Shown: positions 4,045 to 62,820, counted from the first letter of the stretch. The stretch is DNA of 64,000 bases from an uncultured bacterium (GCA_964576535.1 CAZNWB010000002.1:28470-92469), one strand, 5' to 3'. The notes: generated by a model from the sequence alone, not told the origin. Numbers and translations are program-made.

Positions 4045-4051
4045 GCCACGC

Positions 4052-42640: not shown

Positions 42641-43666
42641 ATGGCCTTCATGCAACGTAAAGCATCCGACGTATCAATTGAGGTCTTCTCCACTTGCCCT
42701 TCGTCGAGCACGGTGCACCCCAAGGACTATATCCAACACGTCGTGGATGTCGCGCGCTGGAGCGAACAATACGGTTGCAAAGGCATCCTCGTGTATACAG
42801 ATAATTCTCTGATCGACCCGTGGCTAGTGTCCCACATTATTATCCAGCAGACGAGAACGCTATGCCCGCTCGTCGCAGTCCAGCCCGTTTACATGCATCC
42901 GTATTCCGTCTCCAAACTGGTTACGTCCTTCGGCTATCTCTACGGAAGACGCGTCTATCTCAACATGGTCGCCGGGGGCTTTAAGAATGACCTGACCGCG
43001 CTGAATGACACAACGCCCCACGACAAACGATACGATCGCCTGAGGGAATACACGCTCATCATCAAGCAGCTTCTCGCGGGCGACTCGGTCACATACAAAG
43101 GCGAGTTCTATGCCGTCGAGCATCTGAAGCTCACCCCGCCATTGCCTCGCGAGCTCTTCCCCGGAATCTTCGTCTCGGCCTCGTCCGAAGCAGGGCTAGC
43201 CACCGCCCAAGCTATCGGTGCCACTGCCGTGCACTACCCCAAACCGTCGCGCGAATACGAAGCCACGTCGGTACGTCCTGACAGCGACGCCGGAATTCGA
43301 ATCGGGATCATTACACGCGAGGATGAAGCAGAAGCCTGGACCATCGCCCACGAGCGTTTTCCCGAAGATCGGAAGGGCCAGCTGACCCACCAGCTGGCTA
43401 TGAAGATCTCGGATTCTGTCTGGCACAAACAGTTATCTCAGCTCGCGGCGGAGGCCGACAGCAATCCCTACTGGCTCGTTCCCTTCCAGAATTACAAGAC
43501 GTTCTGTCCTTATCTCGTCGGAAGTTATAAACGAGTTGCAGACGAACTAGCCAGATACATCCTCGCAGGATACAACACGTTTATCCTCGATATCCCCCCG
43601 ACAGAGGAAGAATTGCACCATACCAACGTGGTTTTCGCCCAAGCCTTAAAGGAGGCGACCAAATGA
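42641..43666 (+). CDS. LLM-class (luciferase-like) flavin-dependent oxidoreductase
   Basis: AAGGAGG RBS upstream. 'IEVFSTCPSS...', 'GCKGILVYTDNSLIDPWLV', 'LVAVQPVYMHPYSVSKLV' and 'YLNMVAGGFKNDL'. Confidence 0.8.
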   Translation: MAFMQRKASDVSIEVFSTCPSSSTVHPKDYIQHVVDVARWSEQYGCKGILVYTDNSLIDPWLVSHIIIQQTRTLCPLVAVQPVYMHPYSVSKLVTSFGYLYGRRVYLNMVAGGFKNDLTALNDTTPHDKRYDRLREYTLIIKQLLAGDSVTYKGEFYAVEHLKLTPPLPRELFPGIFVSASSEAGLATAQAIGATAVHYPKPSREYEATSVRPDSDAGIRIGIITREDEAEAWTIAHERFPEDRKGQLTHQLAMKISDSVWHKQLSQLAAEADSNPYWLVPFQNYKTFCPYLVGSYKRVADELARYILAGYNTFILDIPPTEEELHHTNVVFAQALKEATK

Positions 43667-45270
43667 AAGCGCTACTTCAGCAGTGGGTAACCGATCAAGC
43701 CCAGAGACGCCCTGACGCGCTCGCCCTGGTCATGAAGGGGCAGCAACTCACCTATGGCCAGCTGGAGCAACGCAGTAACCAGCTGGCCCGATCGTTCAAA
43801 GCCGCCGGCTGCCAGAAAGGAGATCGGGTGGGCTTGCTCATGCCCAAATCTCCGTCGGCCATCGTCGGCATTCTCGGAACTCTCAAGGCGGATTGCATCT
43901 ATGTACCCCTCGATCCCGCGAGTCCAGCTCCCAGGACGGCGCAGATGATCGCCTCCTCCGAGCCCCGCTGCCTCCTCGCGACCGAGCCGACCGCATCCTT
44001 GTTGGATGAGCTTTGGTCGGATCAAAAGTTTCGCTCGTCCATCTCTGTTGTCTGGATGGACTCGGCCACGGTCGCAGGAAAGAACTTCACCCCAGAGCTT
44101 TTGCAGAGCGACTGGCAGAGCTATTCTGCCGAGCCCCTGGATTATCTCAATCGCCCCGAAGATCCCGCCTACATTCTTTTCACCTCCGGCTCCACGGGGG
44201 TTCCCAAGGGGGTGGTCATCACCCACTCCAACGTCATCCATTTTATCGAATGGGCGACGGAGTACTTCGGCATGAGCGCATCGGATCGGGTTTCGGGCCA
44301 TCCCCCCCTCCATTTCGATTTGTCCGTTTTCGATATATTCGGGACATTCGCAGCCGGCGCCCAACTCCATCTGGTCCCGCCGGAACTGAGTCTCCTGCCC
44401 CACAAATTAGCCGACTTCATCCGCGCTCAGGAGCTCACGCAGTGGTTCTCGGTGCCCTCCGTTTTGACCTACATGGCCAAGTTCGACGTGATCCGGCCAA
44501 ACGATTTCCCGGCCTTGAACCGCCTTCTCTGGTGCGGCGAAGTGCTGCCAACGCCTGTCCTCATGTACTGGATGAAGCGCCTGCCCGGAGTTCGCTTCAC
44601 CAATCTCTACGGCCCCACCGAGGCCACGATCGCCAGCAGCTACTATACGGTTCCCGACTATCCACAGGATGAGCGGGCCGCGATTCCGATCGGGACCGCG
44701 TGCGCCGGCGAAGAGTTGCTTGTGCTGGATGATCGCTTGCAGCCAGTGCCACCGGGCGAGATCGGCGATCTTTACATCCGGGGCGTCGGACTGAGCCCCG
44801 GCTATTGGCGCGATCCCGAAAAGACCCGCGCCGCCTTTTTGCCCAATCCGACCACCGGCGATGGATCGGATCGCATATACAAGACTGGCGACCTCGCACA
44901 CATGGGGGACGATGGTCTCGTGTACTTTCTCGGCAGAGCCGACTCACAAATCAAAAGCCGAGGCTACCGCATCGAGCTCGGCGAAATCGAGACGCACCTG
45001 CATCCCATGCCCTCTCTCAAAGAGTCCGCCGTCGTCGCCATCAACGCCGAGAGCTTCGAAGGCGCCACCATCTGCTGTGCGTACGTCCCCGCTCCCAACG
45101 CCGATGTCACACCAGTCACCCTGCGAAAGGAATTAGCCGAGAAACTGCCGTCCTACATGCTGCCATCCCGGTGGATGGCCTTCGACAAGCTGCCCAAGAA
45201 CGCCAACGGCAAGATTGACCGCCCCCAGTTAAGAAAGGAGTTTCAACGCAATGCAACTCCAGCCCATTGA
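43663..45270 (+). CDS. Stand-alone amino-acid adenylation enzyme (NRPS A-domain / DltA-like)
   Basis: ATGA overlap. 'LTYGQLEQRSNQLA', 'AYILFTSGSTGVPKGVVITH', 'NLYGPTEATI', 'YKTGDLA', 'GRADSQIKSRGYRIELGEIE' and 'LPKNANGKIDR'. Confidence 0.85.
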   Translation: MKALLQQWVTDQAQRRPDALALVMKGQQLTYGQLEQRSNQLARSFKAAGCQKGDRVGLLMPKSPSAIVGILGTLKADCIYVPLDPASPAPRTAQMIASSEPRCLLATEPTASLLDELWSDQKFRSSISVVWMDSATVAGKNFTPELLQSDWQSYSAEPLDYLNRPEDPAYILFTSGSTGVPKGVVITHSNVIHFIEWATEYFGMSASDRVSGHPPLHFDLSVFDIFGTFAAGAQLHLVPPELSLLPHKLADFIRAQELTQWFSVPSVLTYMAKFDVIRPNDFPALNRLLWCGEVLPTPVLMYWMKRLPGVRFTNLYGPTEATIASSYYTVPDYPQDERAAIPIGTACAGEELLVLDDRLQPVPPGEIGDLYIRGVGLSPGYWRDPEKTRAAFLPNPTTGDGSDRIYKTGDLAHMGDDGLVYFLGRADSQIKSRGYRIELGEIETHLHPMPSLKESAVVAINAESFEGATICCAYVPAPNADVTPVTLRKELAEKLPSYMLPSRWMAFDKLPKNANGKIDRPQLRKEFQRNATPAH

Positions 45271-45757
45271 CACCACGACCCTCCAGATCGTCGCTCAGTG
45301 GATGGCCGCCAAAGAGAACTACCAGTGGCTGGACTTTGGCAACGGCAATCAGATCCTGACCCCTATCTCGCTCAAAATCATGTCTCAGCGCGGCATCCAC
45401 CTTCTCCGGGTATTTACTTCAGACTCGGACGATTCGCCCATTGGCCTCGTCGCATTCTCCAATATCTCGCCCCCTTTCAAGACGGCAACATTGTGGTATG
45501 TCCTCGGCAACAAGGCCTACGCCGGAAAGGGCTATACCACCCGCGCCGTCTCCACACTCCTCACGATCGGGTTCACCGAGTTGCGCCTCGCGACCGTAAA
45601 TGCCTGGGCCGTAGATCAAAATACGCCCTCCATTTCAGTCTTAAAACGGAACAACTTCCAATTGATTGGCCGCCAGCGTGAATGTCATTACATAGATGGC
45701 CGTCCCTTCGACCGCTTGCTCTTTGACCTGTTGGCTGCCGAGCACAAGGAACTGTGA
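45251..45757 (+). CDS. GNAT-family N-acetyltransferase (RimJ/RimL-like)
   Basis: 'AYAGKGYTTRAVSTLLTIGFTELRLATVNAWAVDQNTPSISVLKRNNFQLIG'. Confidence 0.75.
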   Translation: MQLQPIDTTTLQIVAQWMAAKENYQWLDFGNGNQILTPISLKIMSQRGIHLLRVFTSDSDDSPIGLVAFSNISPPFKTATLWYVLGNKAYAGKGYTTRAVSTLLTIGFTELRLATVNAWAVDQNTPSISVLKRNNFQLIGRQRECHYIDGRPFDRLLFDLLAAEHKEL

Positions 45758-45758
45758 C

Positions 45759-46040
45759 ATGTCCTCGAACAATCATCTGCCCGATCACATTAAGACCCTC
45801 TTCCTTCAGAAGCTCAATATGGAGGTCCCGTCCGTTGACACAGATTTGTTGGACACGGGCCTCTTGGACTCCCTGCAGTTGGTCGAATTGCTCGTCGTCC
45901 TCGAACAGGAGTTTGGGACCACAATTTCATTCGACGAGATCGAGCTGGATAATTTCAGAACGATCAGAAACATTGCCCACCTCATCGAACATAACCAGGC
46001 CTCACATACACCTAGCGGATCCCCTGCGCCCACTCGCTAG
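45759..46040 (+). CDS. Acyl/peptidyl carrier protein
   Basis: 93 aa. The phosphopantetheine-attachment motif is 'LLDTGLLDSLQLVELLVVLEQEFG'. ATG 45759 lies directly after the GNAT stop. Confidence 0.8.
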   Translation: MSSNNHLPDHIKTLFLQKLNMEVPSVDTDLLDTGLLDSLQLVELLVVLEQEFGTTISFDEIELDNFRTIRNIAHLIEHNQASHTPSGSPAPTR

Positions 46041-46058
46041 AGAAGACGGGTCCTAGAA

Positions 46059-47267
46059 ATGGTCACTGAGTGTCTAAACCGTGTTAGCGGGTTCGCGAAC
46101 TACCTCCGACTCCCACCAACTGCAAGAGCCGAGCACAGGGCCGACCGATCCGGACTTGCCCAAGACGACCCAGGCTTGGACCGCGCCATTAAAGAGGGGG
46201 TCGCTTGGCTGTGTTGGGCACAGGACCACTCAGCTTCCAAAGACGGGGGTGTCGCCCGCCACCTCAGTCTGATTACTGGCTGGGGCACTTCCTACCCCGA
46301 GACAACGGGCTACATTGTCCCGACGCTCCTCACATACGCGCACCGATATCAGGATGCGACTGTCCGCCAACGCGCGAAAAGGATGCTTGATTGGCTGGCG
46401 TCGATCCAGCTTCGCGATGGCGGATTTCAGGGGGGGCCCGTCGGCGCCACGCCGCTCGTCCCCGTCACCTTCAACACGGGGCAAATTTTATTTGGGCTGG
46501 CCGCTGGCGCGAGAGAATTTGGAGAGTACGTCGAGCCAGTACTGCGGGCGGCTAACTGGTTAGTGAAGGTGCAAGATCCTGATGGGTGCTGGCGGCGGTA
46601 TCCCTCTCCGTTCGTGACACCAGGGGAGAAGACCTACGATACCCACGTCGCCTGGGCGCTTTTGGAAGTGGCCCGCCTCACGTCCGACAGAGTATACGCA
46701 GAGGCTGCGCTCGCCAACTTGCGCTGGGCCCTGTCTTTGCAGCACGAGAACGGCTGGTTTGACAACTGCTGTCTGACCGACCCCGCTCAGCCGTTGACGC
46801 ACACGTTGGGGTATGCGTTACGCGGAGTTCTTGAGGGCTATCGATTTACGGATGACAGCCGCTTCTTGAAGGCCGCTTGTACGACGGCTGATGGGATTCG
46901 AGCAGCGCTCCGAGATGACGGCTTCCTTCCAGCCCGGCTATACCCGAATTGGAGGGGGACAGTCTCATGGGCTTGCCTCACCGGCTCGGCTCAAATCGCG
47001 ATCTGTTGGCTCATGCTGTATCAGATTACGGGTGACACCAAATATCTGCATGCGGGATCTGCCGCAAACCGCTATTTGAGACGGACGATGAAAGTCAACG
47101 GACAGCCCGAAACCCGGGGCGCCATCAAGGGCTCATTCCCCGTCTACGGCGGCTACGGTACCTACGAATACCTGAGCTGGGCGGTCAAGTTTTGCATCGA
47201 CGCGAACCAGCTGGAGAAACAAATCCGGGATGGGGGTCTGCGTGCGGAACGCCCTTCGTACTCTTAA
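46059..47267 (+). CDS. Alpha/alpha-toroid repeat protein (prenyltransferase / squalene-oxidase-repeat-like)
   Basis: Repeated 'Q..DGG.' type motifs ('SIQLRDGGFQGG', 'KVQDPDGCWR', 'SLQHENGWFD') spaced about 50-60 aa apart. Confidence 0.5.
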   Translation: MVTECLNRVSGFANYLRLPPTARAEHRADRSGLAQDDPGLDRAIKEGVAWLCWAQDHSASKDGGVARHLSLITGWGTSYPETTGYIVPTLLTYAHRYQDATVRQRAKRMLDWLASIQLRDGGFQGGPVGATPLVPVTFNTGQILFGLAAGAREFGEYVEPVLRAANWLVKVQDPDGCWRRYPSPFVTPGEKTYDTHVAWALLEVARLTSDRVYAEAALANLRWALSLQHENGWFDNCCLTDPAQPLTHTLGYALRGVLEGYRFTDDSRFLKAACTTADGIRAALRDDGFLPARLYPNWRGTVSWACLTGSAQIAICWLMLYQITGDTKYLHAGSAANRYLRRTMKVNGQPETRGAIKGSFPVYGGYGTYEYLSWAVKFCIDANQLEKQIRDGGLRAERPSYS

Positions 47268-48132: not shown

Positions 48133-48749
48133 AATTGCTCGGCATCTCGGGCAGTGCGACCAAGAGCGGCCGAACACGAGCCGCAGTGCAGCTCGCGCTC
48201 GACTCAGCGCGCCATATCTTGCCGGAACTTGACACCCAGCTCGTCGACCTCTGTGAATGGAAGGTGTCGCTGTTCGACGGGCGGCCGCTCGCCGAGTACA
48301 CGGACGACACACAAGGTGTCGTCGAGATGATTCAGCATGCAGATTGCTTCCTCATCGGCAGCCCTATATATCGCGGCACGTACACCGGGGCTCTCAAGAA
48401 TCTCTTGGACCATGTCCCACTCGAGGCCTTGATGGGGAAGGTCGTAGGGCTCATCGCGACAGGAGCGACGGCACATCATTATTTGGCCATCGACCACGAA
48501 CTCCGGGCCCTGATGGCATATTTCAATGCCTACGTGCTGCCCGGCAGCGTGTATATCGAACAGGCTCAATTCCGGGAGCAAGATGTGGTTGATTCTCAAG
48601 CGCTTCAGCACTTGTACCAGCTCGGCCAGAGCGTCGTGCAAGCCGCCAAAGTACTGCGCGGAGTGGTACCTTCGCCTCCTCCGCTAGCGCAATGGATACG
48701 AGCGACGCGTCCTCGCAAGTCAACTCACCGTCTTAACCCCAGCGCGTAG
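48129..48749 (+). CDS. NAD(P)H-dependent FMN reductase (likely partner of the LLM oxidoreductase)
   Basis: ATGA overlap. 'MKLLGISGSATKSGRTR', 'ADCFLIGSPIYRGTYTGALKNLLDH' and 'VGLIATGATAHHYL'. Its last codons and stop lie inside repeat copy A. Confidence 0.75.
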   Translation: MKLLGISGSATKSGRTRAAVQLALDSARHILPELDTQLVDLCEWKVSLFDGRPLAEYTDDTQGVVEMIQHADCFLIGSPIYRGTYTGALKNLLDHVPLEALMGKVVGLIATGATAHHYLAIDHELRALMAYFNAYVLPGSVYIEQAQFREQDVVDSQALQHLYQLGQSVVQAAKVLRGVVPSPPPLAQWIRATRPRKSTHRLNPSA

Positions 48750-48779
48750 GCGAACGATCCTGCTGGGGCTCGGAGTGCT
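48741..48779 (+). repeat. Copy A: 39-nt fragment of the 5' end of the PrsT-like gene
   Basis: 'agcgcgtaggcgaacgatcctgctGgggctcggaGtgct' versus 63474-63512 is 37/39 identical. It encodes 'ARRRTILLGLGVL'. Confidence 0.8.
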
Positions 48780-48844
48780 ACTGATGGCAAGTACCAGCAT
48801 CGACGCGAATCTGCGGGAGAAGGCACTCTGGCGCTTAGGGGCGG

Positions 48845-49831
48845 ATGAGCATGCAATTTCACGCTGAACCAGTCGCGTCCACTATGCTGCTTCAGGCGCT
48901 GGCGGCGCGCGCCCCAACCAATCCCTTTGTCACACCATCCTACGTCGCCGCGCGCGCCACGCTTGGCGAGCGGCCATGGATATTGGGACTCCAGCAGGAG
49001 GGGCGGTGGGCGGTTGCATGCCTCGCGTTTCTCAGCCCGGGCTGGTTGGCCCGATCGGCGGAAGTGCCTTCCCTCCCGCTCCTCACTTCTGACAACAGTG
49101 CCTTCTGGCAGGGAATACTTTCGTTCGCCCGAAGGCATCAAGTGTGGGAGCTATTCTTGGAGAGCTTCGCGTCTCCTTCTCTCGAACTGCCCCCGCTACC
49201 CGGGGAGCGGGCTCGGCACGCGCGCCGCGAGTATCTAATCGATTTGTCCAATGGGGATCCTTGGCAGACCCTTTCGTCCCATCACAGGCGCAATGTGACA
49301 CGAGCGAAGAAAGAGGGTCTGGCACTACGGCGTACCGCCAACGCGGAGGCTTGCGAGACACACGCTCGGCTAATCTCCGCCTCGTTGTCTCGACGCGCCG
49401 CGCGAGGGGAGGCGGTGGTGACAGTGGCTGAATACACGGATTTCCACCGGGCTCTCATCGGGAGCGGAGCGGCAGAACTCTTTCAGGCTGTCCGCGGAAA
49501 CGAAGTAATCTCGTCAGTCCTCGTTCTGAAGGCGGCGCAAGGAGCGTACTATCAATCCGCGGGCACGCTACAAGATGGAATGGCATGTGGCGCCTCGCAC
49601 TTCCTAATCCATGAAACCTGTCAGGTGCTCAAAGCCGAGAATGTGCATCTGTTCAACCTCGGGGGAGCTGGACCGCACGAGCTGGGGCTGCAGCGATTCA
49701 AGGCGGGGTTCGGCGCGAGAGAACTGCGCCTCGAGGCCGTGCAACTCGTTCTGGCCAGTGGGATCAAGCGCACACTGAGAACTGCGGCGCGGTTACTCTT
49801 GCCCCAGAAGGCTTTCCACGCGCTGTTCTAA
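48845..49831 (+). CDS. FemAB-family / GNAT (Acetyltransf_6-like) aminoacyl- or acyl-transferase
   Basis: 'LSSHHRRNVTRAKKEGLALRR', 'GAYYQSAGT...GASHFLIHE' and 'FNLGGA...GLQRFKAGFGA'. Confidence 0.6.
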   Translation: MSMQFHAEPVASTMLLQALAARAPTNPFVTPSYVAARATLGERPWILGLQQEGRWAVACLAFLSPGWLARSAEVPSLPLLTSDNSAFWQGILSFARRHQVWELFLESFASPSLELPPLPGERARHARREYLIDLSNGDPWQTLSSHHRRNVTRAKKEGLALRRTANAEACETHARLISASLSRRAARGEAVVTVAEYTDFHRALIGSGAAELFQAVRGNEVISSVLVLKAAQGAYYQSAGTLQDGMACGASHFLIHETCQVLKAENVHLFNLGGAGPHELGLQRFKAGFGARELRLEAVQLVLASGIKRTLRTAARLLLPQKAFHALF

Positions 49832-49918
49832 GAACCCCGGGACGCTCTGGGCCGTGTTTACGGATGATCCAAGACACCACGGCCGGATCTAGAGCCTTGG
49901 AAGTCATCTGATGAAGCT

Positions 49919-50686
49919 TTGATAGACCTCGCGACTGAAAGGCGAGAATTGTTATCTCTTCAACCTGGAGGTAGCGATGAAAGGGTGGTTCCCGTAGTAG
50001 CGGCCTACGACTGGCTCTATATCGGGTCATACGGCTGTCGGGTGAGTCCCTTCGTCCTAAACCTGATCTCGAACTTCCTCTTCGTCCCGCTGACAATCTT
50101 CCGTGGGCGAGTTACGCCACAGCGCTGGGTGCGCTACTGGATTTGCCCCTCCGACGTACATTCGGGCACCCCGCCCGCACCCCGGCTCACGCCGGTGACA
50201 GACGAAATCATCCGGCAACTTCGCAATCACCCGGACCGCACCCACAATGAATTACAGTCCGGATTGCGATGGTGGGACCATGGACTGCGCCGAGCCTATG
50301 TCTGGCTCGAAACCGAGGGCCCGCTCTGTATCCAGTGGCTCCTAACCGACGGTGATAATGCGAAGCTCAGGACCCTGCCGATCTGGGCGGGGATGTACCC
50401 GCCGCTTCCACCGGAACGCGGCCAAGTCGAACATCTGCTCAGGTTCACAAATGCGGGGCGAGGGGTTGCCACACAGTTCGCGCGCGCCATGTATGAGGAG
50501 GCGCGACGCGCCGGATTGCGAGACCTTATCACCCACATCCACGAGAACAACGTCCCAGCGCGCGTGTGGGCCGAGCGAACGGGCTGGCGGCGCTACGGGA
50601 CCATCACGCGATACGGATTCGATTTGCCGGGATTGCGAGATCTCAACATCTGCCTACATCGTACGAGCCCTAGTCGGCAATCGTGA
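49919..50686 (+). CDS. GNAT-family acetyltransferase (start uncertain)
   Basis: C-terminal 'GRGVATQFARAMYEEARRAGLRDLITHIHENNVPARVWAERTGWRRYG' is an acetyl-CoA-binding-type motif. The TTG start at 49919 is speculative. Confidence 0.5.
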   Translation: MIDLATERRELLSLQPGGSDERVVPVVAAYDWLYIGSYGCRVSPFVLNLISNFLFVPLTIFRGRVTPQRWVRYWICPSDVHSGTPPAPRLTPVTDEIIRQLRNHPDRTHNELQSGLRWWDHGLRRAYVWLETEGPLCIQWLLTDGDNAKLRTLPIWAGMYPPLPPERGQVEHLLRFTNAGRGVATQFARAMYEEARRAGLRDLITHIHENNVPARVWAERTGWRRYGTITRYGFDLPGLRDLNICLHRTSPSRQS

Positions 50687-50730
50687 GTTGGAGCCGCCGC
50701 GCGACAGGCAGTGGGCCGGAGGGTAAGCGA

Positions 50731-52263
50731 ATGCTCTATACAGTGGCTGACATACTGAGACGTGGCCGGGGACCGAGCCCGGGTGAGAAGGTGGCCATCG
50801 TAGATGGCGACCAACGTGTCACCTATCGAGAACTACACGACCTGGCCCTCGGGTACGGGAACTTATTGAGCGAATCCGGCCTGAAGAAGGGCGATCGTGT
50901 GGCGATCTTCCTGCGGCGCTCTGTCAAGGCGGTGGCTGGCTTGTTCGCCACGTATTTTGCAGGTGGCGTTGCGGTCATCATCAACGAGATGCTACGCCCC
51001 AAGCAAGTGAACTACATCCTAGAGCACAGCCAGGCCTCCTTCCTCATTACCGACAGTCGCCAGCTGCTGTACGTCCCCGAGCCAGCCATTCAGAAGGAAC
51101 GGATCATTAATCTGGATGAAGCGAAACCCACCAGCGCGACCTCTACCTCCGCCTCGGCGATCGGGACCGATCTGGCTCTCATTATCTATACATCGGGATC
51201 CACAGGCCTCCCGAAGGGCGTCATGATCAGTCACGATAATCTCTTATCCGGCGCCGAGATCGTGGCGGACTATTTGAATCTCTCGGCGGATGACACGCTG
51301 ATCAGTCTCCTTCCATTCAGCTTCGATTACGGTCTAAACCAGCTCCTGACGGCCCTGCTCGTCGGTGGGACTCTGGTGATTCAGCGTTCCCTATTTCCGC
51401 CTGATATTTGTAAGACACTGCAACGGGAGAAGGTGACCGGTATGGCAGGCGTCCCCACGCTGTGGCTCCAGCTCATCGACAAACACTCACCCTTTATGAA
51501 GACGACCTTTCCCCGCCTTCGGTATCTTACCAATACCGGCGGCCGCTTGCCGGAGCACGTGGTCCGATTGATTCGAAAGACCCATCCGCAGGTGGACCTC
51601 TATCTCATGTACGGCCTGACGGAGGCCTTTCGATCCACCTATCTGCCGCCAAACCAGACGGATCTGCGACCTACTTCCATTGGAAAAGCCATACCAAACG
51701 TCGAGGTTCTCGTCGTCAACGAGCAGGGGCGCCCCTGCGGCGTCGATGAGGTCGGCGAACTCGTCCACAGAGGCACCACTGTGGCCATGGGCTACTGGCG
51801 TGATCCCAATGCCACGGCCAAAGTATTTCGACCCCACCCATTCCAACAGCCTGGAGGGAATTCGAACGAGAAGGTGGCTTTTTCGGGGGACCTTGTCAAA
51901 AAGGACGGCGACGGGTATCTGTACTACGTCGGCCGGCGCGACCAACTGATCAAATCCCAGGGATTTCGCGTCAGCCCGGAAGAGATCGAGCACTGCGTTT
52001 TCTCCTCACACTTAGTTTCCAACGCCGCCGCCTTCGCCGTTTCGAGCAACGAAGTTGATCCTGATATCGTCGTCGCCGTGAAGCCCAGAGACCCCTCGAG
52101 TTTTCGTCACGAGCTCCTGCACGACTTCTGCAAGCGTGAGATGCCACCTTACTTGCGGCCTCGCGTGATCTGGTGCTTGGACGATTTCCCCCTGACACCA
52201 ACCGGAAAACCGGACCGTGTCGCTCTTCAGAAAGCCTATGTGGACACCCATAAGCGCTCTTGA
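50731..52263 (+). CDS. AMP-dependent acyl-CoA/acyl-carrier ligase
   Basis: 'LALIIYTSGSTGLPKGVMISHDN', 'MYGLTEA', 'FSGDLVKKDGDGYLYYVGRRDQLIKSQGFRVSPEEIE' and 'PLTPTGKPDR'. Confidence 0.85.
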   Translation: MLYTVADILRRGRGPSPGEKVAIVDGDQRVTYRELHDLALGYGNLLSESGLKKGDRVAIFLRRSVKAVAGLFATYFAGGVAVIINEMLRPKQVNYILEHSQASFLITDSRQLLYVPEPAIQKERIINLDEAKPTSATSTSASAIGTDLALIIYTSGSTGLPKGVMISHDNLLSGAEIVADYLNLSADDTLISLLPFSFDYGLNQLLTALLVGGTLVIQRSLFPPDICKTLQREKVTGMAGVPTLWLQLIDKHSPFMKTTFPRLRYLTNTGGRLPEHVVRLIRKTHPQVDLYLMYGLTEAFRSTYLPPNQTDLRPTSIGKAIPNVEVLVVNEQGRPCGVDEVGELVHRGTTVAMGYWRDPNATAKVFRPHPFQQPGGNSNEKVAFSGDLVKKDGDGYLYYVGRRDQLIKSQGFRVSPEEIEHCVFSSHLVSNAAAFAVSSNEVDPDIVVAVKPRDPSSFRHELLHDFCKREMPPYLRPRVIWCLDDFPLTPTGKPDRVALQKAYVDTHKRS

Positions 52264-53425
52264 ACCATTTTTCGAACCCCAGAAACGCTTCGACGCCCTG
52301 AGCGCGGCGACTTTCCGGCGATTCGGGCCGAAGATCGTCGACCTCTCCTACGCGAATCCCTATGACGGGCCGGATGATGAGGTTCGTCAGGCCCTGCACT
52401 CGGCCATAGGGAACACAAAGGATCTTTCGCTCCAATATACCCCATACGGCGGCAAGACCACCACGCGTCGGTTGATTGCCTCGAAGTTGAGTGCCGAGTA
52501 TGGCGTTCCCTTCCACTTCCGCGATGTCGTCATGACGCCCGGGGCGATGGCGGCGCTCAACGTCACGTTCAGAACCCTGTTCGGGCCGGAAGATGAAGTC
52601 CTCGTGCCGACGCCGTGTTGGTTCGACTACCCACTCTATCTGCAGAATCTCGGCATTCCGTACCGGTTCGTGACAACCACCGAAGATAAGCATCTGGACC
52701 TGTCGGCGATTGGTCGCGCCCTAAGCGCACGGACTCGAGCCATTCTCCTCAGCCATCCGTGTTGCCCCACTGGGGTGGTGTATTCGCGAGACGAAATCGA
52801 CGGGCTGGCGGACCTGCTGACGCACGCCGAGCAACGACTCAACGCGCCCATTTACTTGATCAGCGACGAGGTACATCGACACCTGATTTGGCGTACCACC
52901 GAATTTTACAGCCCGCTACAAGCTTACCCCCGCAGCCTCACCATCTACTCGTTTGGTAAGGTGCTATCCCTCCAGGGGCAACGTATCGGGTATGTGGCCG
53001 TGTCCCCCCGAATGCCCGAGCGAGACAGCATGAGAGCGCAGCTGGAGCGATGCGTGAGAATCACCGGATTCTGCGCTCCGACTGCGCTCATGCAGAACGC
53101 CATCTGCCGGCTGCTGGACTACCACCCCCGGCTCGACCTACTCGCCCGCCATCAAGAAACGATCCGGACCAACTTAAAGGCGTGGGGGTACGCGGTGTGC
53201 GACGCCCCGGCCACCTTCTTCGTCTATGTCAAGTCGCCTCTCGCCGATGATTTCGCGTTCACCGAGCTATTGGCGGCCCGAGGGGTGCTCGTCACGCCCT
53301 CGACGCTTTTCCACGAAACCGGATACATTCGTATTTCTCTCACGGCGAAATCCGAGGCCATCGCCGCGGGCCTCCCGGAGTTCCAACGCGTTTTAGAAGA
53401 CCTTGCCCAGTACAAGCATGCTTGA
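52238..53425 (+). CDS. Class I/II PLP-dependent aminotransferase
   Basis: 'IVDLSYANP', 'VLVPTPCWFDYP' and 'SLTIYSFGKVLSLQGQRIGY' (Lys of the SxxK PLP site). Overlaps the ligase gene by 26 nt. Confidence 0.75.
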   Translation: MWTPISALEPFFEPQKRFDALSAATFRRFGPKIVDLSYANPYDGPDDEVRQALHSAIGNTKDLSLQYTPYGGKTTTRRLIASKLSAEYGVPFHFRDVVMTPGAMAALNVTFRTLFGPEDEVLVPTPCWFDYPLYLQNLGIPYRFVTTTEDKHLDLSAIGRALSARTRAILLSHPCCPTGVVYSRDEIDGLADLLTHAEQRLNAPIYLISDEVHRHLIWRTTEFYSPLQAYPRSLTIYSFGKVLSLQGQRIGYVAVSPRMPERDSMRAQLERCVRITGFCAPTALMQNAICRLLDYHPRLDLLARHQETIRTNLKAWGYAVCDAPATFFVYVKSPLADDFAFTELLAARGVLVTPSTLFHETGYIRISLTAKSEAIAAGLPEFQRVLEDLAQYKHA

Positions 53426-54761
53426 GTCGATGACGATGATACACAACTTCTGCTGGGCCGGGGATTCGCCTTGGATGCCCGCGCAGCGCGACTCTACGGC
53501 CAGCAGTATCGACATGCTGCCAACCCTACACGGCCAATTCGCACTCGCTCTCACAAGCCCCGAAGACACCACAGTCACGCTAATTCGTGACCGCCTCGGA
53601 GCCAACAAACTGTTCTTTGCCCTTCACGAATCGGGAACAGTATTGGTCGCCAACTATCTCATCGACCTCGCCCGTCGCGGTGTCCCGTTCGAGTGCATCT
53701 ACTCGGTACCGGCTGGCCACTTCATGGAAATAGACCTGCAGCACCGAGCGCTGCGCCTGATCCCATATTTCTCCCCACGCATAGACGACACCGAAAAGGG
53801 GCAACTCCGGGCTGTAGTCGCCACGACGATCCGCACACACCTTGACCGCTGGTTCAAGAGATTGGCGGAGCAATTCCACTCCCGCCGCATATTTGTGTGC
53901 GTCTCGGGCGGCCTCGATAGTGGCCTCATCGCGGCCTTCGCGAAAAGATATTTTCCCGACGTGACGGCATACACGTTTGGATACACGCAAACCGGCGACG
54001 AGTCCACGGAGGATGCCTACTATGGACGCCTCCTCGCCGAACACCTCGAGCTTCCGTTTCGCTTCGTCCCGGCCTCGTCAGACGACGTACTGAAGGCCGT
54101 CGAGAGTGCACTCGTATACGGGCAGGACTGGCGTGATTTCAACGTCCACTGCGCGATCGTGAACGAATTGCTCGCACGCGCAATGGCGTCTGATTTGGGC
54201 CAGGCAACAGACGGCCTCCCCCCGCTGGTCCTCACAGGGGATCTGATGAACGAGTTCATCGCCGACTATACCCCCGTGGTCTACGGCGGGAGGGAGTATT
54301 ACCCGTTGCCGAAGCTCGACCGCGCCTCCTTGAGACTCGCCTTGATTCGTGGCTTAGACGCTGGCGATCGAGAGGTCGGCATCTTTGCCAGGCATGGGCT
54401 CGATCTCATTCAGCCCTACGGGCTACTCCTCGATCTGTATCTGGCGCTACCAGGCTCTCTCCTTCGCGAGGGGCACGCAAAGCAGACGCTCGCACGCGCA
54501 ATTGCGGGCGACCTCTTGCCAGATTGGATTTTCCATCGAACGAAGGTCCGGGCCCAGATCGGCAACTCCAAGGAACCCGCCGGCATACTCCCCGTACTCT
54601 CAGAGTCCGGCCGCGACGCCGAGTGGATCCAGAACACCTTTCGCGAGCTGCTCGGAATCGAGCACGGCGCATCGCTGAGCCGGTTCATTCGGGCTGGGAT
54701 CTATCGCTTCATCAACGATTTCCCAAGGCGAACAACCACAAATGGCTATTTTATCAACTAG
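53418..54761 (+). CDS. Asparagine-synthetase-B-like PP-loop ATPase with a truncated, Cys1-less N-terminal domain
   Basis: 'IFVCVSGGLDSGLIAA' (SGGxDS) and 'GQFALAL...IRDRLGANKLFF'. No Cys follows the initiator Met, and the N-terminal domain is about 80 aa shorter than in the paralogue at 18608. Confidence 0.7.
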   Translation: MLESMTMIHNFCWAGDSPWMPAQRDSTASSIDMLPTLHGQFALALTSPEDTTVTLIRDRLGANKLFFALHESGTVLVANYLIDLARRGVPFECIYSVPAGHFMEIDLQHRALRLIPYFSPRIDDTEKGQLRAVVATTIRTHLDRWFKRLAEQFHSRRIFVCVSGGLDSGLIAAFAKRYFPDVTAYTFGYTQTGDESTEDAYYGRLLAEHLELPFRFVPASSDDVLKAVESALVYGQDWRDFNVHCAIVNELLARAMASDLGQATDGLPPLVLTGDLMNEFIADYTPVVYGGREYYPLPKLDRASLRLALIRGLDAGDREVGIFARHGLDLIQPYGLLLDLYLALPGSLLREGHAKQTLARAIAGDLLPDWIFHRTKVRAQIGNSKEPAGILPVLSESGRDAEWIQNTFRELLGIEHGASLSRFIRAGIYRFINDFPRRTTTNGYFIN

Positions 54762-55035
54762 CATCGCTCCGGCGATCGAGGAGTTCATCCGACGGGAGCA
54801 TCAGATACCAGACAATGACCCTTTGTACACCCGAGACGCCCACTTGTTCGAATCGGGCTTTGTAGATTCTCTGGGATTTACTCAACTGATTGCCTTCATT
54901 GAGTCCACGTTCGAGATGACATTTGACGTCGAGCATCTGTTCAGCGAGGAATTCACGACAATCAACGGCATCAGTGAGGTGATTCACGCACGCCTCAACA
55001 ACCGACAAGCCAAATCCTCCTGCGCGAACCCCTAA
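54742..55035 (+). CDS. Acyl carrier protein
   Basis: 97 aa. 'LFESGFVDSLGFTQLIAFIESTFEM' carries the Ser attachment motif. Overlaps the AsnB-like gene by 20 nt. Confidence 0.75.
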   Translation: MAILSTSIAPAIEEFIRREHQIPDNDPLYTRDAHLFESGFVDSLGFTQLIAFIESTFEMTFDVEHLFSEEFTTINGISEVIHARLNNRQAKSSCANP

Positions 55036-55297
55036 CGGGCCGCCTCGGCACTGATCATTCTAGAGCCGACGCAGCTTCACGGGGATATTCGGCTTACAGC
55101 GTACCGATGACATAGTTTGGTCAGCGTCTCCTCTAGAGCTCACCCTCCAGTGGTCAGGAATGTTGCCGGGAAAGTGTATGGGAGATGGAATGAGCCGCGC
55201 TAGGAGACGTTCGCGACCGATACGCCGGAGAGTCGCATGGCAAGGCCATAATGGAAAACCCCCGTACGCGTCCGGGAAAGAAGAGCCTCTGAAACTC

Positions 55298-56260
55298 ATG
55301 TTACTACGGGTTTTCGGAAGAACTGGTCTCGAAGTCACTGCACTGGGTTACGGCGCCATGGAGATTCGGGGGCCGCGAATCTGGGGCGGCCGGTCGGTGA
55401 CCAACGCACAGGCGGAGGGCATCCTCAACGCCGTTTTGGATCAGGGGATTAACTTTATCGATACCGCCTATGATTACGGGAAGAGCGAGGACTACGTTGG
55501 TCGATTCCTCAGCCACCGGCGGAAGGAGTTCTATCTGGCGACCAAGTGCGGCTGTACCGTCGTACCCGCCGGAGATCACGACGAGACACCTCATGTCTGG
55601 ACTCGGAAAAACCTTCTCCGGAATATCGAGAATAGCCTGCGCCGCATGAGGACGGATTATGTGGACGTCTGGCAGCTCCACAATCCATCGGTCGAGCAGG
55701 TACGGGCAGGAGATCTCGTTAAGGTGATGGAGGAGGTTCGAGCCGCCGGGAAGGTGCGGTGGATCGGGGTCTCCTCAAGTTTGCCCGACATTATCCCGTT
55801 CATCGAGTGGGGAGTGTTTGGCAGCTTCCAGATCCCGTATTCGGGGCTCGAGCGCCGTCATGAGCAGGTGGTCACCGCCGCCGCACGCGCGGGGGCGGGG
55901 ACAATCATTCGCGGTGGGGTGGCCCGAGGAGCCCCCAGCCCGCAGCGCTGGATCCGCATTCTACTCGGACTCCGGCGGGGCGATCAGTGGGTAGTGTGGA
56001 AGAAGGCCGCGCTGGACGACCTGCGAGCGCCCGGAGAAAGTCGCACCGCCTTCCTTCTCCGTTTTACGCTCTCTCATCCCGATATGCATACAACCATCGT
56101 CGGAACCGTGAATCCCCACCATTTGGCTGAGAACGTGCGGGCGGCCGAGGCCGGCCCGCTGTCCCCTGACACGTATGCGGAGGCTAAGCGTCGGCTGGCC
56201 GCCGCGGGGGAGAACCCCGTCGAGTCCCGGCGCGATCTGTCATGCGCCCTGCCTCGGTAG
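55298..56260 (+). CDS. Aldo/keto reductase
   Basis: 'GRTGLEVTALGYGAMEIRG', 'GINFIDTAYDYGKSEDYVG', 'LATKCG' and 'DYVDVWQLHNP'. ATG 55298 is preferred over 55160. Confidence 0.85.
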   Translation: MLLRVFGRTGLEVTALGYGAMEIRGPRIWGGRSVTNAQAEGILNAVLDQGINFIDTAYDYGKSEDYVGRFLSHRRKEFYLATKCGCTVVPAGDHDETPHVWTRKNLLRNIENSLRRMRTDYVDVWQLHNPSVEQVRAGDLVKVMEEVRAAGKVRWIGVSSSLPDIIPFIEWGVFGSFQIPYSGLERRHEQVVTAAARAGAGTIIRGGVARGAPSPQRWIRILLGLRRGDQWVVWKKAALDDLRAPGESRTAFLLRFTLSHPDMHTTIVGTVNPHHLAENVRAAEAGPLSPDTYAEAKRRLAAAGENPVESRRDLSCALPR

Positions 56261-56467: not shown

Positions 56468-56941
56468 GTGACGATGTTCCGCAGACCGCATAAACGAACG
56501 ATCCTGCTCGGGCTCGGACTGCTGGTAATCGGTGTGGCGATCGCCGCCGGGGTCTTGTGGTCTCCAGCGGCAAGGAAGGCCCGCCACCTCGAACGCGCCG
56601 ATCGGTATTTCAGCCAGGAGCAGTACCGGCAAGCTATCATCGAATACCGAAACGTCCTCCAGATCGAGGCGACCAACGCGCGATCTGTCCGGCAGCTTGG
56701 CCTTGCTCACTACCAGCTCGGTGAGATGGGGCACGCACTCCGTTATCTTGCGAGATCACAAGAACTCGGGCCAAACGACGTAGGGGTCAGGCTCAAGCTC
56801 GCGACGATCTATCTCCTCACCCGGCGGCCGGACAAGCAGCTCGCCGAGCATAAGGTTCCCCGGCGGATGGATATGAGCGACGAAATGCCACGTGGCGCCT
56901 TGGGGAAGATCAAACTCCGCGCCGAGGATCTCCGCATCTGA
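56468..56941 (+). pseudogene. Copy B: truncated duplicate of the PrsT-like TPR gene (first ~115 codons, then unrelated tail)
   Basis: 'RTILLGLGLLVIGVAIAAGVLWSPAARKARHLERADRYFSQEQYRQAIIEYRNVLQIEATNARSVRQLGLAHYQLGEMGHALRYLARSQELGPNDVGVRLKLATIYLLTR' aligns residue for residue with the gene at 63448. Nucleotide homology runs from about 56487 to 56850. Confidence 0.7.
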
Positions 56942-59798: not shown

Positions 59799-61604
59799 AT
59801 GATGCCTACAAACCAGGAACTCGAGATTGGTGGATCACCCTTGACGATCGAGCAGGCAGACCAGGAATTGGAGATTGGTGGATCACCCTTGACGATCGAG
59901 CAGGTCTTGGCGGTCGCAGACAACCGAGACATCCGCATACGGTTGGCGGATCCGTCGCGGGCGCGCATGACCAGAACGTACCGCTATGTCAAGGACACCG
60001 TTGAAGACTTTCTGCGGCTGTCCGCGGCCGGGAAGCTCGCGTCGCGGGATCGCCTGATCTATGGCGTGAACACGTCATTCGGCGCCTTGAAAGACATCAC
60101 CATGACCACGAGCGAGCAGGCGCGACGCCTGCAACAGAATATCGTGGCTAGCCATGCGGCCGGCGTGGGTAGTGCATTCGAAATCCCGATCATTCGCGCC
60201 GCGATGCTGTTGCAGGCCCATGCCCTGGCCAGCGGCCGTTCCGGGGTCCGCTACGGCGTCGTCGAGCGGCTGGTCGCGCTTCTGAATCGCGGCATCCATC
60301 CCCTCGTTCCTGAACAGGGCTCGGTCGGCGCCAGCGGAGATCTGGTGCCCCTGGCGCATGCCGCGCTGGTTTTGATCGGGAAAGGACGAGCCCAGCATCG
60401 GGGCGCGCTCTACGAGGGGACCGAGGTCGAAGCGCTGCTGCGTGACGCAGGCATATGCGATCTTGAGTGGAAGGATCTAAAGCTCGACTACAAAGAAGGA
60501 CTCGCGCTGGTCAATGGCACCTACACCTCGACCGCCCTTGCCCTCCTCGCCTACCGCCAAGCGGAGACGCTGGTCAAGCATGCCGATATCGCGGCTTGCA
60601 TGAGCCTGGAGGCCACGCTGGGTCATACGCGAGCCTTCGACCGGGTCGTGCACGAGACGCGGCCGCACCAGGGGATGAAAGACTGCGCCGAGAATTTTCG
60701 TACGCTCTTCTCGGTCAGGGACCCTCATACCGGCGAGCCGAGGCTCTCGAGCGAGTTGCTCAACAGGAGCGCGCACGTGCATGATTGCTATTCGCTACGC
60801 TGCTCCCCCCAAGTCCATGGCACGGTGCGGGACGCGCTACGCTTCGTGAGGGAAACCCTCGCGGTCGAGATCAATGCGATCACCGATGATCCCATATTTT
60901 TCAACCCAGAGGAGCTGGACGGCAGCGACATGAAGCCGGTCGACGGCAGGACGGACAAGCTCCATTTCGAGGAGGGCAGCATGCACGGACAACCCGTTGC
61001 GCTGGCCATGGACGTACTCGGCATCGCCCTCACGACCATCGGCGTCATTTCCGAGCGGCGAGTGCAGATGTTGTTGGACAAGAATCACAACGAAGGCCTG
61101 CCGGCGCAGCTCGTCAATAACGACAGCGGCACGAACTCCGGGCTGATGATCGCCCAGTACACGGCCGCGGCCCTCGTGGCGGAGAGCAAGACGCTTTCCC
61201 ACCCGGCTTCGAACGAATCCATTCCGACGTCGGGGAATTACGAGGATCACGTGAGCATGGCCCCGATCGGGGGCCGGAAGGCTCGCACCATCGGCAGGAA
61301 CGTGCAGAACATTCTGGCCATTGAGTTCCTGTGCGCGGTACACGCCTTATGCTTCAGAACCGGAGTGTTGAGTTCGCCACGATCACCGAACGCCGACGGC
61401 GGGGATCACGCGCCAGACGGGCGGATTAGAGGGAGGCCGGCGCCCGGAAGCCTGGCCGCGGTGGAGGCGATACGTCCCGTCATTCGGATGGTTGACTGCA
61501 ACGACGAAGAGTTGCACGGAAGCATAGCCGCGATTGCCGGGATGATTGGCGACAGGACCATAGCGACGGCTGTCGAGCGGGCTATAGGCACGGTGTTGCT
61601 ATAA
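59799..61604 (+). CDS. MIO-dependent aromatic-amino-acid ammonia-lyase family enzyme, histidine ammonia-lyase type
   Basis: RBS 'GAGGGAGGGAAG' upstream. 'YGVNTSFG', 'NIVASHAAGVG', 'GSVGASGDLVPLAHAALVLIGKG' (Ala-Ser-Gly MIO triad) and 'CYSLRCSPQVHG'. At 601 aa it is longer than my recollection of typical HutH (about 510 aa). Confidence 0.85.
   Translation: MMPTNQELEIGGSPLTIEQADQELEIGGSPLTIEQVLAVADNRDIRIRLADPSRARMTRTYRYVKDTVEDFLRLSAAGKLASRDRLIYGVNTSFGALKDITMTTSEQARRLQQNIVASHAAGVGSAFEIPIIRAAMLLQAHALASGRSGVRYGVVERLVALLNRGIHPLVPEQGSVGASGDLVPLAHAALVLIGKGRAQHRGALYEGTEVEALLRDAGICDLEWKDLKLDYKEGLALVNGTYTSTALALLAYRQAETLVKHADIAACMSLEATLGHTRAFDRVVHETRPHQGMKDCAENFRTLFSVRDPHTGEPRLSSELLNRSAHVHDCYSLRCSPQVHGTVRDALRFVRETLAVEINAITDDPIFFNPEELDGSDMKPVDGRTDKLHFEEGSMHGQPVALAMDVLGIALTTIGVISERRVQMLLDKNHNEGLPAQLVNNDSGTNSGLMIAQYTAAALVAESKTLSHPASNESIPTSGNYEDHVSMAPIGGRKARTIGRNVQNILAIEFLCAVHALCFRTGVLSSPRSPNADGGDHAPDGRIRGRPAPGSLAAVEAIRPVIRMVDCNDEELHGSIAAIAGMIGDRTIATAVERAIGTVLL
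59813..59908 (+). repeat. In-frame 48-bp tandem duplication (2 copies) inside the ammonia-lyase N-terminus
   Basis: 59813-59856 versus 59861-59904 is 42/44 identical. It encodes 'QELEIGGSPLTIEQAD' followed by 'QELEIGGSPLTIEQVL'. Confidence 0.9.
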
Positions 61605-62608: not shown

Positions 62609-62820
62609 GCCGCTCGGCGCGTCTGCGCCTGGCCACCCGCCGGACCTGGGCGCGCCTGATCCGCAAGATCTACGAGGCGGACCCCCTCCTCTGTCCCTGG
62701 TGCGGCGCCACGATGAAGGTCATTGCCGTGATCGAGGATGAGGAGGTTATCTACCGAATCCTGGCCCACCTGCACCTGCTGGCTCCAGGGGACGGCCCAC
62801 CGCCCCCACCCACGGAAGTC
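62605..62820 (+). mobile_element. IS91-family transposase C-terminal fragment
   Basis: 'TWARLIRKIYEADPLLCPWCGATMKVIAVIEDEEVIYRILAHLHLL' parallels the IS91 tail 'LLKRVFE.DPL.CP.CGG.MRIIA.IED..VI.KIL.HLGL'. No catalytic domain lies upstream. Confidence 0.65.

Follow-up and report, generated by a model that had tools for sequence, protein, structure and literature searches.

A carrier-centred four-gene operon with a Cys-less AsnB homologue, found in at least nine bacterial phyla, in an exopolysaccharide locus of an uncultured bacterium

We report that the interval between positions 48,845 and 56,260 of a 64,000-nucleotide stretch of DNA from an uncultured bacterium (GCA_964576535.1, CAZNWB010000002.1:28470-92469; this whole stretch is referred to as the window) consists of three unrelated things: a four-gene operon (50731-55035), a pair of genes for a FemAB-like transferase and a GNAT-like protein (48845-50686), and a gene for an aldo-keto reductase (AKR), which is probably a passenger outside the module. 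The operon, below also called the core, encodes a ligase (50731), an aminotransferase (52238), an AsnB-like enzyme (53418) and a carrier protein (54742), and it is colinear, abutting and translationally coupled. What it makes is probably an unusual acyl group, which other enzymes would then attach to polysaccharides or peptides. Specifically, we lean towards the view that the core makes a carrier-tethered amino-dicarboxylate derivative, the free carboxylate of which is amidated or cyclised and which is then handed to an amine acceptor, our confidence being lower where the chemistry is concerned. The core can thus be described as a carrier-protein-dependent tailoring or acyl-donor cassette, a variant covered neither by a curated family nor by the literature that we searched.

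The initial annotation of the window, made from the sequence without database searches, had presented all seven genes of the interval as one cassette and one pathway. The seven open reading frames (ORFs) are located where it placed them, on the + strand, and domain searches agree with each of its labels. Its picture of a co-translated, carrier-centred set also stands for the ligase, the aminotransferase, the AsnB-like enzyme and the carrier: with the start codons that it had chosen, the overlaps are 26 nt between ligase and aminotransferase (52238-52263), 8 nt between aminotransferase and AsnB-like gene (53418-53425) and 20 nt between AsnB-like and carrier genes (54742-54761), and independent JGI gene calls on an identical contig (L001; related loci are numbered in the same way below) agree on where the aminotransferase, AsnB-like, carrier and AKR genes start. 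The seven-gene unit did not hold up. The co-occurrence check that had been suggested was positive for the four core genes, which are found together, and negative for the FemAB-like, GNAT and AKR genes, which accompanied the core in 0 of 47 non-identical loci (tblastn).

Related loci were surveyed using one genome per GTDB species, giving 45 loci, and tblastn with the seven window proteins. The four core genes are present together and colinear in approximately 32 to 36 of these, as well as in L007 and L009, and the core was seen in essentially every locus that has an AsnB-like match of at least about 37% identity and a long enough contig. Order and strand are the same, with the ligase at about -2.7 kb, the aminotransferase at about -1.2 kb and the acyl carrier protein (ACP) gene at about +1.3 kb relative to the AsnB-like start, and in all loci examined the end of the aminotransferase gene adjoins or overlaps the start of the AsnB-like gene. 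L007 and L009, both exopolysaccharide (EPS) loci, have the order ligase, aminotransferase, AsnB-like gene and ACP followed by a gene of approximately 365 codons. The core occurs in at least nine phyla (Rokuibacteriota, Gemmatimonadota, Acidobacteriota, Planctomycetota, Myxococcota, Actinomycetota, Chloroflexota, Spirochaetota and Proteobacteria), and among cultured bacteria in Sulfidibacter corallicola M133 and Acanthopleuribacter pedis KCTC 12899 (both Acidobacteriota) and Asanoa iriomotensis NBRC 100142 (Actinomycetota). EPS genes lie near the core in Rokuibacteriota, Gemmatimonadota, Acidobacteriota and actinomycete loci; among 36 core loci we noted polysaccharide deacetylase genes in 10, GT4 glycosyltransferase genes in nine, full-length AsnB genes in eight and DegT/GFO sugar-amination genes in three. 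We found no description of the module in the full-text literature searched for this gene combination, nor in the 2006 PEP-CTERM paper, and no NCBIfam model reaches its cut-off for the AsnB-like protein, the aminotransferase or the carrier.

Aminotransferase-AsnB fusions that appeared in our first ORF maps were discarded as an artefact of upstream ORF extension, the two genes being fused in 0 of 36 loci. Separately, the database protein P0494 (1055 aa) carries an aminotransferase segment and a short AsnB-like domain in one chain, which may reflect a natural fusion or else a fault of assembly or gene calling. A second architecture belongs to a distant branch of the AsnB-like family (33-38% identity, mostly Alphaproteobacteria), in which the short AsnB-like gene is immediately adjacent to a full-length AsnB gene and an ACP gene, without ligase and aminotransferase. 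This arrangement was seen in L047, L049, L050, L053 and L055 (Alphaproteobacteria) and in L044, L045 and L052, and in L049, L050 and L053 three conserved genes of approximately 300 to 500 codons precede the set.

The ligase ORF opens at a GTG (50683), and its start is likely the ATG at 50731. Against TIGR03098, the exosortase A-associated acyl-CoA ligase, the protein scores 551.3 bits (cut-off 592.35) and is hence a close relative and not a member; against TIGR01733 it scores 278.7 bits, below the cut-off of 317.4. Its best matches among solved structures (PDB) are adenylation (A) domains of non-ribosomal peptide synthetases (NRPSs) and ACP-loading beta-amino-acid ligases, not fatty-acyl-CoA ligases. 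A special relationship to LgrA was considered and rejected, since the 332-bit score combines two A domains (140 + 190) and indicates no particular tie to the Gly domain. Comparison of 32 orthologues across phyla revealed that the motifs FSFDYGLNQ, MYGLTEAFRST and PTGK are near-invariant, that the hallmarks of NRPS A domains, i.e. the amine-binding Asp (Asp235, FSFDYG, A4) and the Lys (Lys517, PTGK, A10), are present in all 32, and that the pocket pattern D-Y-N-x-T-[ST]-M...R-S...K is found in 31. The near-invariance of the A4 Asp, the A10 Lys and MYGLTEAFRST suggests one common substrate that bears an amino group, while the conserved Arg of the pocket hints at an acidic group, at a place where the alignment register is ambiguous.

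The aminotransferase scores 298 bits against NF005305 (cut-off 376). When aligned to the Thermus aspartate aminotransferase (1b5o/1bjw), it retains the pyridoxal phosphate (PLP)-binding Lys (SFGK), the PLP-N1 Asp (SDE) and the Arg that binds the alpha-carboxylate, and these three are conserved in 37 orthologues; the equivalents of Asn194 and Tyr225 are mostly Cys and His. Retention of the Arg and its companions implies that the substrate has a free alpha-carboxylate.

The AsnB-like enzyme had been described as Cys-less, and indeed it has no conserved Cys after Met1; its N-terminus reads MLESM, the family consensus being MLESLLxIxNF. The protein matches the tail of GATase_7 only. The first half of the glutaminase domain is missing and the second half alone aligns, to ASNS residues from about 110 onward. 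With 62.5 bits it falls far below the TIGR01536 cut-off for glutamine-hydrolysing asparagine synthase (267.1). The motifs SGGLDS, TGDLMNE and RxKVRAQ are invariant, and with an SGGxDS PP-loop and a two-domain fold the protein belongs to the superfamily of AsnB, beta-lactam synthetase (BLS) and carbapenam synthetase (CarA). An AlphaFold2 model (pLDDT 85.9, pTM 0.90) gave Foldseek matches to BLS, AsnB, ASNS and CarA (1mbz, 1ct9, 6gq3 and 1q15) with TM scores of 0.6-0.69 at 16-20% identity and E values of about 1e-16; BLS, AsnB/ASNS and CarA are matched about equally well. We take TGD275LMNE to correspond to SGE348GSDE of AsnB and TGY348GAD of BLS, and RxK376 presumably provides the lysine that is K449 in AsnB and K443 in BLS, both registers being presumed from motif pattern. 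Many full-length metagenome homologues share 50-65% identity with the protein. A profile search of 1.84 billion cluster representatives returned 157 at E<=1e-30, 490 at E<=1e-10 and 10,616 at E<=0.001, and these counts indicate a discrete family within the AsnB superfamily. The enzyme can presumably adenylate a carboxylate. With the Cys and half of the glutaminase domain missing it cannot draw ammonia from glutamine, and so the nucleophile must be free NH3 or an amine of the substrate.

The carrier has DltC/AmcB-like NCBIfam matches, and the phosphopantetheinyl Ser of its G(Y/F)(V/L)DS motif is invariant in 33 of 33 orthologues. What follows the carrier gene varies by lineage among the 36 core loci. 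In 12 it is a GNAT of approximately 365 aa, here named X5 (all 10 that were tested match Acetyltransf_9, best E 1e-6), and in five, both cultured Acidobacteria included, a hexapeptide-repeat acyltransferase that is usually followed by a GNAT. Single NRPS modules that start with a condensation (C) domain (C-A-T-TE or C-A-T) come next in L021, L024 and L030; such a position, right behind a stand-alone carrier, implies that an amide is formed with the acyl group on the carrier as donor. Altogether the post-carrier gene encodes an identified acyl-transfer catalyst in approximately 20 of the 36 loci, which suggests that the core builds a thioester-activated acyl donor. No X5 homologue was detected in the window by tblastn, and hhalign of the X5 profile against all transferases of the window gave probabilities of at most 0.5%. 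Candidates for off-loading the carrier here are 49919/48845, 45251, 47230 and 56989.

The genes on either side of the core have different affiliations. The FemAB-like protein has more than 300 homologues, many of them 43-68% identical, and many family members are fusions of 505-530 aa with a C-terminal GNAT. The GNAT-like protein 49919 is 25% identical (BLASTP, E=2e-5) to residues 332-499 of one such fusion, P0219, and is, as far as this similarity indicates, the split counterpart of that C-terminal GNAT. In three independent contexts (L056, L058 and L059) the FemAB-like or fusion gene stands directly after a SQHop_cyclase_C-like (alpha/alpha-toroid) gene, overlapping it in L056 and L059; these toroid genes are 58-64% identical to the one at 46059 in the window, and in L059 the pair is followed by genes for the exosortase EpsH, for EpsI and for a TPR protein. 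Neither ligase, aminotransferase, short AsnB-like gene nor ACP was found within 8 kb in the three loci. These contexts argue that 46059, 48845 and 49919 form a separate conserved triad, which in the window is interrupted by genes for an AAC(3)-like protein and an FMN reductase and by a TPR-gene remnant (copy A in Table 1). The FemAB-like protein is not a member of the FemAB family of PEP-CTERM loci, which the initial annotation had brought to mind: it scores 19.1 bits against TIGR03019 (cut-off 260.35) and belongs to Pfam Acetyltransf_6/FemAB only. The AKR is a highly conserved reductase of general type, 65-86% identical to AKRs of approximately 303 aa from many phyla (Chloroflexi, Paenibacillus, Cohnella and others), and homologues with 77-81% identity adjoin genes for thymidylate kinase, DNA polymerase III delta' and Met-tRNA synthetase, or unrelated small genes. 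Close homologues in such unrelated neighbourhoods lend no support to the reduction step that had been assigned to the AKR.

Our proposal for the core starts from what the analysis shows, namely which genes are present, how well the operon is conserved, which motifs are invariant, what fold the AsnB-like enzyme has and how the exit enzymes vary; substrate class, order of steps, amide or lactam outcome, acceptor and the off-loading enzyme of the window are inferred. The ligase would attach one particular amino acid to the 97-aa carrier as a thioester, and this amino acid is probably acidic or dicarboxylic. The aminotransferase would either make the alpha-amino-dicarboxylate from a 2-oxo acid or act on the free alpha-amino-acid head group of the tethered substrate, and the AsnB-like enzyme would adenylate the remaining carboxylate, which would become an amide by reaction with NH3 or a lactam by reaction with an amine of the substrate itself. 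A lineage-specific transferase would then move the finished acyl unit to an amine; in EPS loci the acceptor would probably be a de-N-acetylated amino sugar, the amine of which is exposed by the co-occurring deacetylase. The more particular idea that the AsnB-like enzyme closes a lactam on a carrier-tethered amino-dicarboxylate, i.e. a beta-lactam (Asp-type) or a lactam of the 5-oxoprolyl type (Glu-type), we consider rather improbable.

Several points weigh against this proposal. The register of the ligase pocket is ambiguous near TEAFRS, where HMMER sets a two-residue gap, and the pocket code matches no NRPS code known to us. The aminotransferase may act on free metabolites only. Approximately 16 of the 36 core loci are without an identified exit enzyme in what is a crude survey, genes in the related loci were called with a home-made heuristic based on ORFs and third-position GC content, and in the window the carrier gene is followed by the AKR and by no recognised exit enzyme. 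Moreover, several core loci have NRPS or megasynthase genes in place of EPS genes, and the link to EPS is therefore contextual and not obligatory.

The same NRPS-linked loci are what a small-molecule pathway would lead one to expect, that is, a core that makes an NRPS starter or a free acid, is unrelated to EPS and is present in this locus only as the region accumulates mobile cassettes. In addition to the C-A-T(-TE) modules that follow the core immediately in L021, L024 and L030 there are megasynthase genes near it in L037 and L039, and in the window duplicated fragments of the TPR gene lie on both sides of the unit, with an IS91-like transposase remnant nearby. We regard this explanation as unlikely, but by no means negligible: in L007, L009, L011-L015 and L020 and in the actinomycete loci L017, L018 and L051 the core sits within same-strand glycan genes (GT4, Wzy_C, deacetylase, sugar aminotransferase and full-length AsnB). 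Another reading is the pathway of all seven genes, in which AKR reduction of a keto acid, transamination and amidation on the carrier precede attachment to the polymer by the FemAB-like protein and the GNAT. All seven genes lie side by side on one strand, with just 44 nt between the GNAT stop and the ligase start, and no other exit enzyme comes after the ACP in the window. Yet the FemAB-like, GNAT and AKR genes occur in no other core-bearing locus, the FemAB-GNAT module has its own contexts free of ligase and ACP, close relatives of the AKR are found in unrelated surroundings, and the amine-binding Asp kept in the ligase is ill suited to a keto-acid substrate; taken together this makes the seven-gene pathway quite improbable.

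The full-length AsnB paralogues of EPS loci are thought to amidate uronic-acid carboxylates of the polysaccharide, and one may ask if the short enzyme does the same with free ammonia, acting on the polymer instead of a carrier-bound unit and having only a genetic linkage to the ligase and the ACP. Such paralogues are common in the same loci, and the alphaproteobacterial architecture pairs the short gene with a full-length AsnB and an ACP in the absence of ligase and aminotransferase genes. However, the AsnB-like gene stays between the aminotransferase and ACP genes, with overlapping stops and starts, even in NRPS-linked loci that have no glycan genes, and we judge action on uronic acids very improbable.

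The nearest annotated system is the exosortase-A (XrtA) set, which consists of the TIGR03098 ligase, the TIGR03099 PLP decarboxylase, the TIGR03100/03101 hydrolases and an ACP. Both have a stand-alone AMP-forming ligase, that of the core being closely related to TIGR03098, a PLP enzyme, a small carrier and a PEP-CTERM-style EPS locus. The initial annotation had set the genes apart from this set, correctly so: the core ligase scores just under the TIGR03098 cut-off, and TIGR03099 and TIGR03100/03101 had no match in the seven proteins or their neighbours. The PLP enzyme of the core is a class I/II aminotransferase and not an Orn/DAP-type decarboxylase; in place of hydrolases there is a Cys-less AsnB homologue, and the core also occurs beside NRPS genes and in actinomycetes.

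The VinN-VinL-VinO route to the vicenistatin starter is a precedent for a PLP enzyme that acts on an aspartate-type head group while this is tethered to a carrier: an A domain and an ACP, both stand-alone proteins, first become charged with an aspartate-type amino acid, the PLP enzyme then modifies it, and transfer of the unit falls to another enzyme (PMC11284099). Beta-amino-acid ACP ligases (VinN, HitB, IdnL1 and CmiS6) are among the best solved matches of the core ligase, at approximately 170 bits. The core differs in being distant in sequence, in having an aminotransferase for the decarboxylase and an extra AsnB-fold enzyme, and in the absence of VinM- and VinK-type partners. With BLS and CarA the AsnB-like enzyme shares the fold (TM 0.6-0.66), the PP-loop, the lack of an N-terminal nucleophile and, as the motif pattern suggests (RxK376), apparently the C-terminal catalytic Lys. 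It is only 16-18% identical to them, its N-domain is about 100 residues shorter, and the position of Tyr348 in BLS (which with Glu382 forms the catalytic dyad there) and of Glu348 in AsnB is, as far as the motif pattern shows, taken by an invariant Asp (TGD, Asp275). BLS and CarA act on free substrates without a carrier protein.

An A-domain ligase and a small carrier are also the core's points of likeness to DltA/DltC and AlmE/AlmF/AlmG, where the aminoacyl group reaches a cell-envelope polymer through a separate transferase; unlike these, the core has no DltB/DltD or AlmG homologue, has two extra tailoring enzymes acting before transfer and has another pocket. In the RfbK-O tetronate module of Vibrio cholerae O1 a carrier and an AMP-ligase serve to make an uncommon N-acyl substituent of an amino sugar, with a dehydrogenase and a reductase as tailoring enzymes, unlike the core; this comparison is one of known functions and not of homology.

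The repeats that the initial annotation saw around the interval were recovered at 48741-48788, 56478-56777 and 63467-63766, and derive from the 5' end of a TPR gene, an apparently intact copy of which runs past the end of the window (Table 1). The three copies are 77-90% identical over their common 48 nt, and the JGI call for copy B has TPR Pfam matches. The TPR protein encoded after EpsH and EpsI in L059 is a homologue, its N-terminus being 37% identical to copy B and 36% to the TPR gene in which the window ends. As the copies bracket the carrier gene sets, it appears that insertion or recombination took place at the start of the TPR gene several times in succession. Just upstream of the apparently intact copy, at approximately 62665-62800, the peptide IYEADPLLCPWCGATMKVIAVIEDEEVIYRILAHLHLL matches the C-terminal ends of plasmid transposases annotated as IS91/ISPps1 (tblastn against plasmids; weak matches of 44-51% identity, E 8e-8 to 7e-5), and is probably a transposase remnant; Pfam gave no match for IYEADPLLCPWCGATMKVIAVIEDEEVIYRILAHLHLL. 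The repeat-bounded cassettes of this locus do not coincide with functional modules.

The EPS-locus setting given for the window was borne out: it is a long single-strand EPS locus with all large ORFs on the + strand. Its matches to PEP-CTERM-specific families (stp2, stp3, PEP_O_lig_1 and TIGR03108) are all sub-threshold, and no exosortase match was obtained among approximately 50 window ORFs scanned, a set that did not include the minus-strand ORF 5625-6146. A promoter and terminator scan of 47.5-57.5 kb gave nothing that exceeded shuffled sequences.

Two other carrier gene sets flank the interval (cassettes I and III in Table 1). The short ORF 45754 is a candidate ACP of cassette I; JGI calls a 93-aa PP-binding gene overlapping it (contig L001), and a Pfam scan of 45754-46056 gave no match. 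The head of cassette I (42641-45757; LLM monooxygenase, amino-acid adenylation ligase and GNAT) has counterparts with 53-67% identity beside the four-gene core elsewhere, in two Rokuibacteriota loci and one Gemmatimonadota locus (L013 295-3609, L035 approximately 1616-4708 and L025 6791-9725), and those in L025 and L035 include an ACP. In L037 and L039 a single protein of approximately 1600 aa combines a formyltransferase with an A domain, into which an LLM monooxygenase is inserted, and with a PCP. The extreme 5' end of the HAL/aminomutase-like gene of cassette III (59799-61604) contains a tandem 48-nt duplication (59809-59904, 94% identity) that would repeat 16 N-terminal residues of the protein. 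Finally, 40048-42249, inside the EPS locus, encodes a 733-aa fusion of an MFS-like membrane domain and a spermidine-synthase-like domain (NF037959, 'fused MFS/spermidine synthase', 62 bits, cut-off 40).

Table 1. Features of the window and of related loci, with the matches on which the assignments are based
Feature	Position	Strand	Basis or remark
Core gene 1: stand-alone NRPS-type adenylation enzyme (carrier-protein ligase)	50731..52263	+	AMP-binding 283.8 bits
Core gene 2: fold-type I (class I/II) PLP aminotransferase	52238..53425 (ORF from 52217)	+	Aminotran_1_2 141.8 bits
Core gene 3: Cys-less ATP-dependent enzyme of asparagine-synthetase/beta-lactam-synthetase fold	53418..54761 (ORF from TTG 53403)	+	Asn_synthase 58 bits
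Core gene 4: 97-aa carrier protein	54742..55035	+	PP-binding 28.6 bits; motif GFVDSLGFTQL
FemAB/Acetyltransf_6-family transferase	48845..49831	+	Pfam Acetyltransf_6 36.8 bits, FemAB 30.1 bits
GNAT-like protein	49919..50686	+	Weak Acetyltransf_3 match, 21.6 bits, under cut-off 25.4
Alpha/alpha-toroid (SQHop_cyclase_C-like) protein, outside the interval as initially annotated	46059..47267	+	SQHop_cyclase_C 36.9 bits
Aldo-keto reductase	55298..56260 (ORF from 55160)	+	Aldo_ket_red 132.6 bits
Toroid plus FemAB-like(-GNAT) pairs	L056 6815-9533, L058 6889-8969, L059 6827-9572		EPS loci
Repeat copy A: 48-nt remnant of TPR gene 5' end	48741..48788	+	90% identical to 63474-63521
Repeat copy B: truncated 157-aa copy of TPR gene 5' end	56468..56941	+	300 nt, 84% identical to 63467-63766
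Apparently intact TPR gene	From 63448, past window end (64000)		Repeat comparison
Cassette I	LLM monooxygenase 42641, A-domain ligase 43663, GNAT 45251, short ORF 45754, alpha/alpha-toroid 46059, AAC(3)-like 47230, FMN reductase 47952		
Cassette III	ACP-GNAT fusion 56989, ligase 57858, HAL/aminomutase-like gene 59799		
GT4 and GT2 glycosyltransferases	Several in the EPS locus of the window		Domain searches
Wzy_C/PEP_O_lig-like protein	20085		EPS locus gene
Full-length AsnB	18260		TIGR03108-like, 375 bits, under cut-off
WecB, Wzb-like phosphatase, carbamoyl-phosphate synthase, NodU-like carbamoyltransferase	EPS locus of the window		
GDSL esterases (three or four) and formyltransferase	EPS locus of the window		
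Polysaccharide deacetylases (two)	657 and 28274		EPS locus of the window
Second Acetyltransf_6 protein	29086		Comes after deacetylase 28274

Carrier cassettes in EPS loci, the exosortase-A set included, have been annotated for about twenty years, and to our knowledge none has been characterised biochemically. The core described here is a sharply defined module with a near-invariant ligase pocket that is plugged into GNATs, hexapeptide transferases and NRPS condensation domains. Being sharply defined and present in the three cultured strains, and comprising four small soluble proteins, it makes the question experimentally tractable. If the lactam reading were true, the module would represent a widespread and hitherto undescribed route to lactam acyl groups for EPS amino sugars or NRPS starters. 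More generally, the product of the core could be a new polysaccharide decoration or a peptide starter unit, possibly a lactam.

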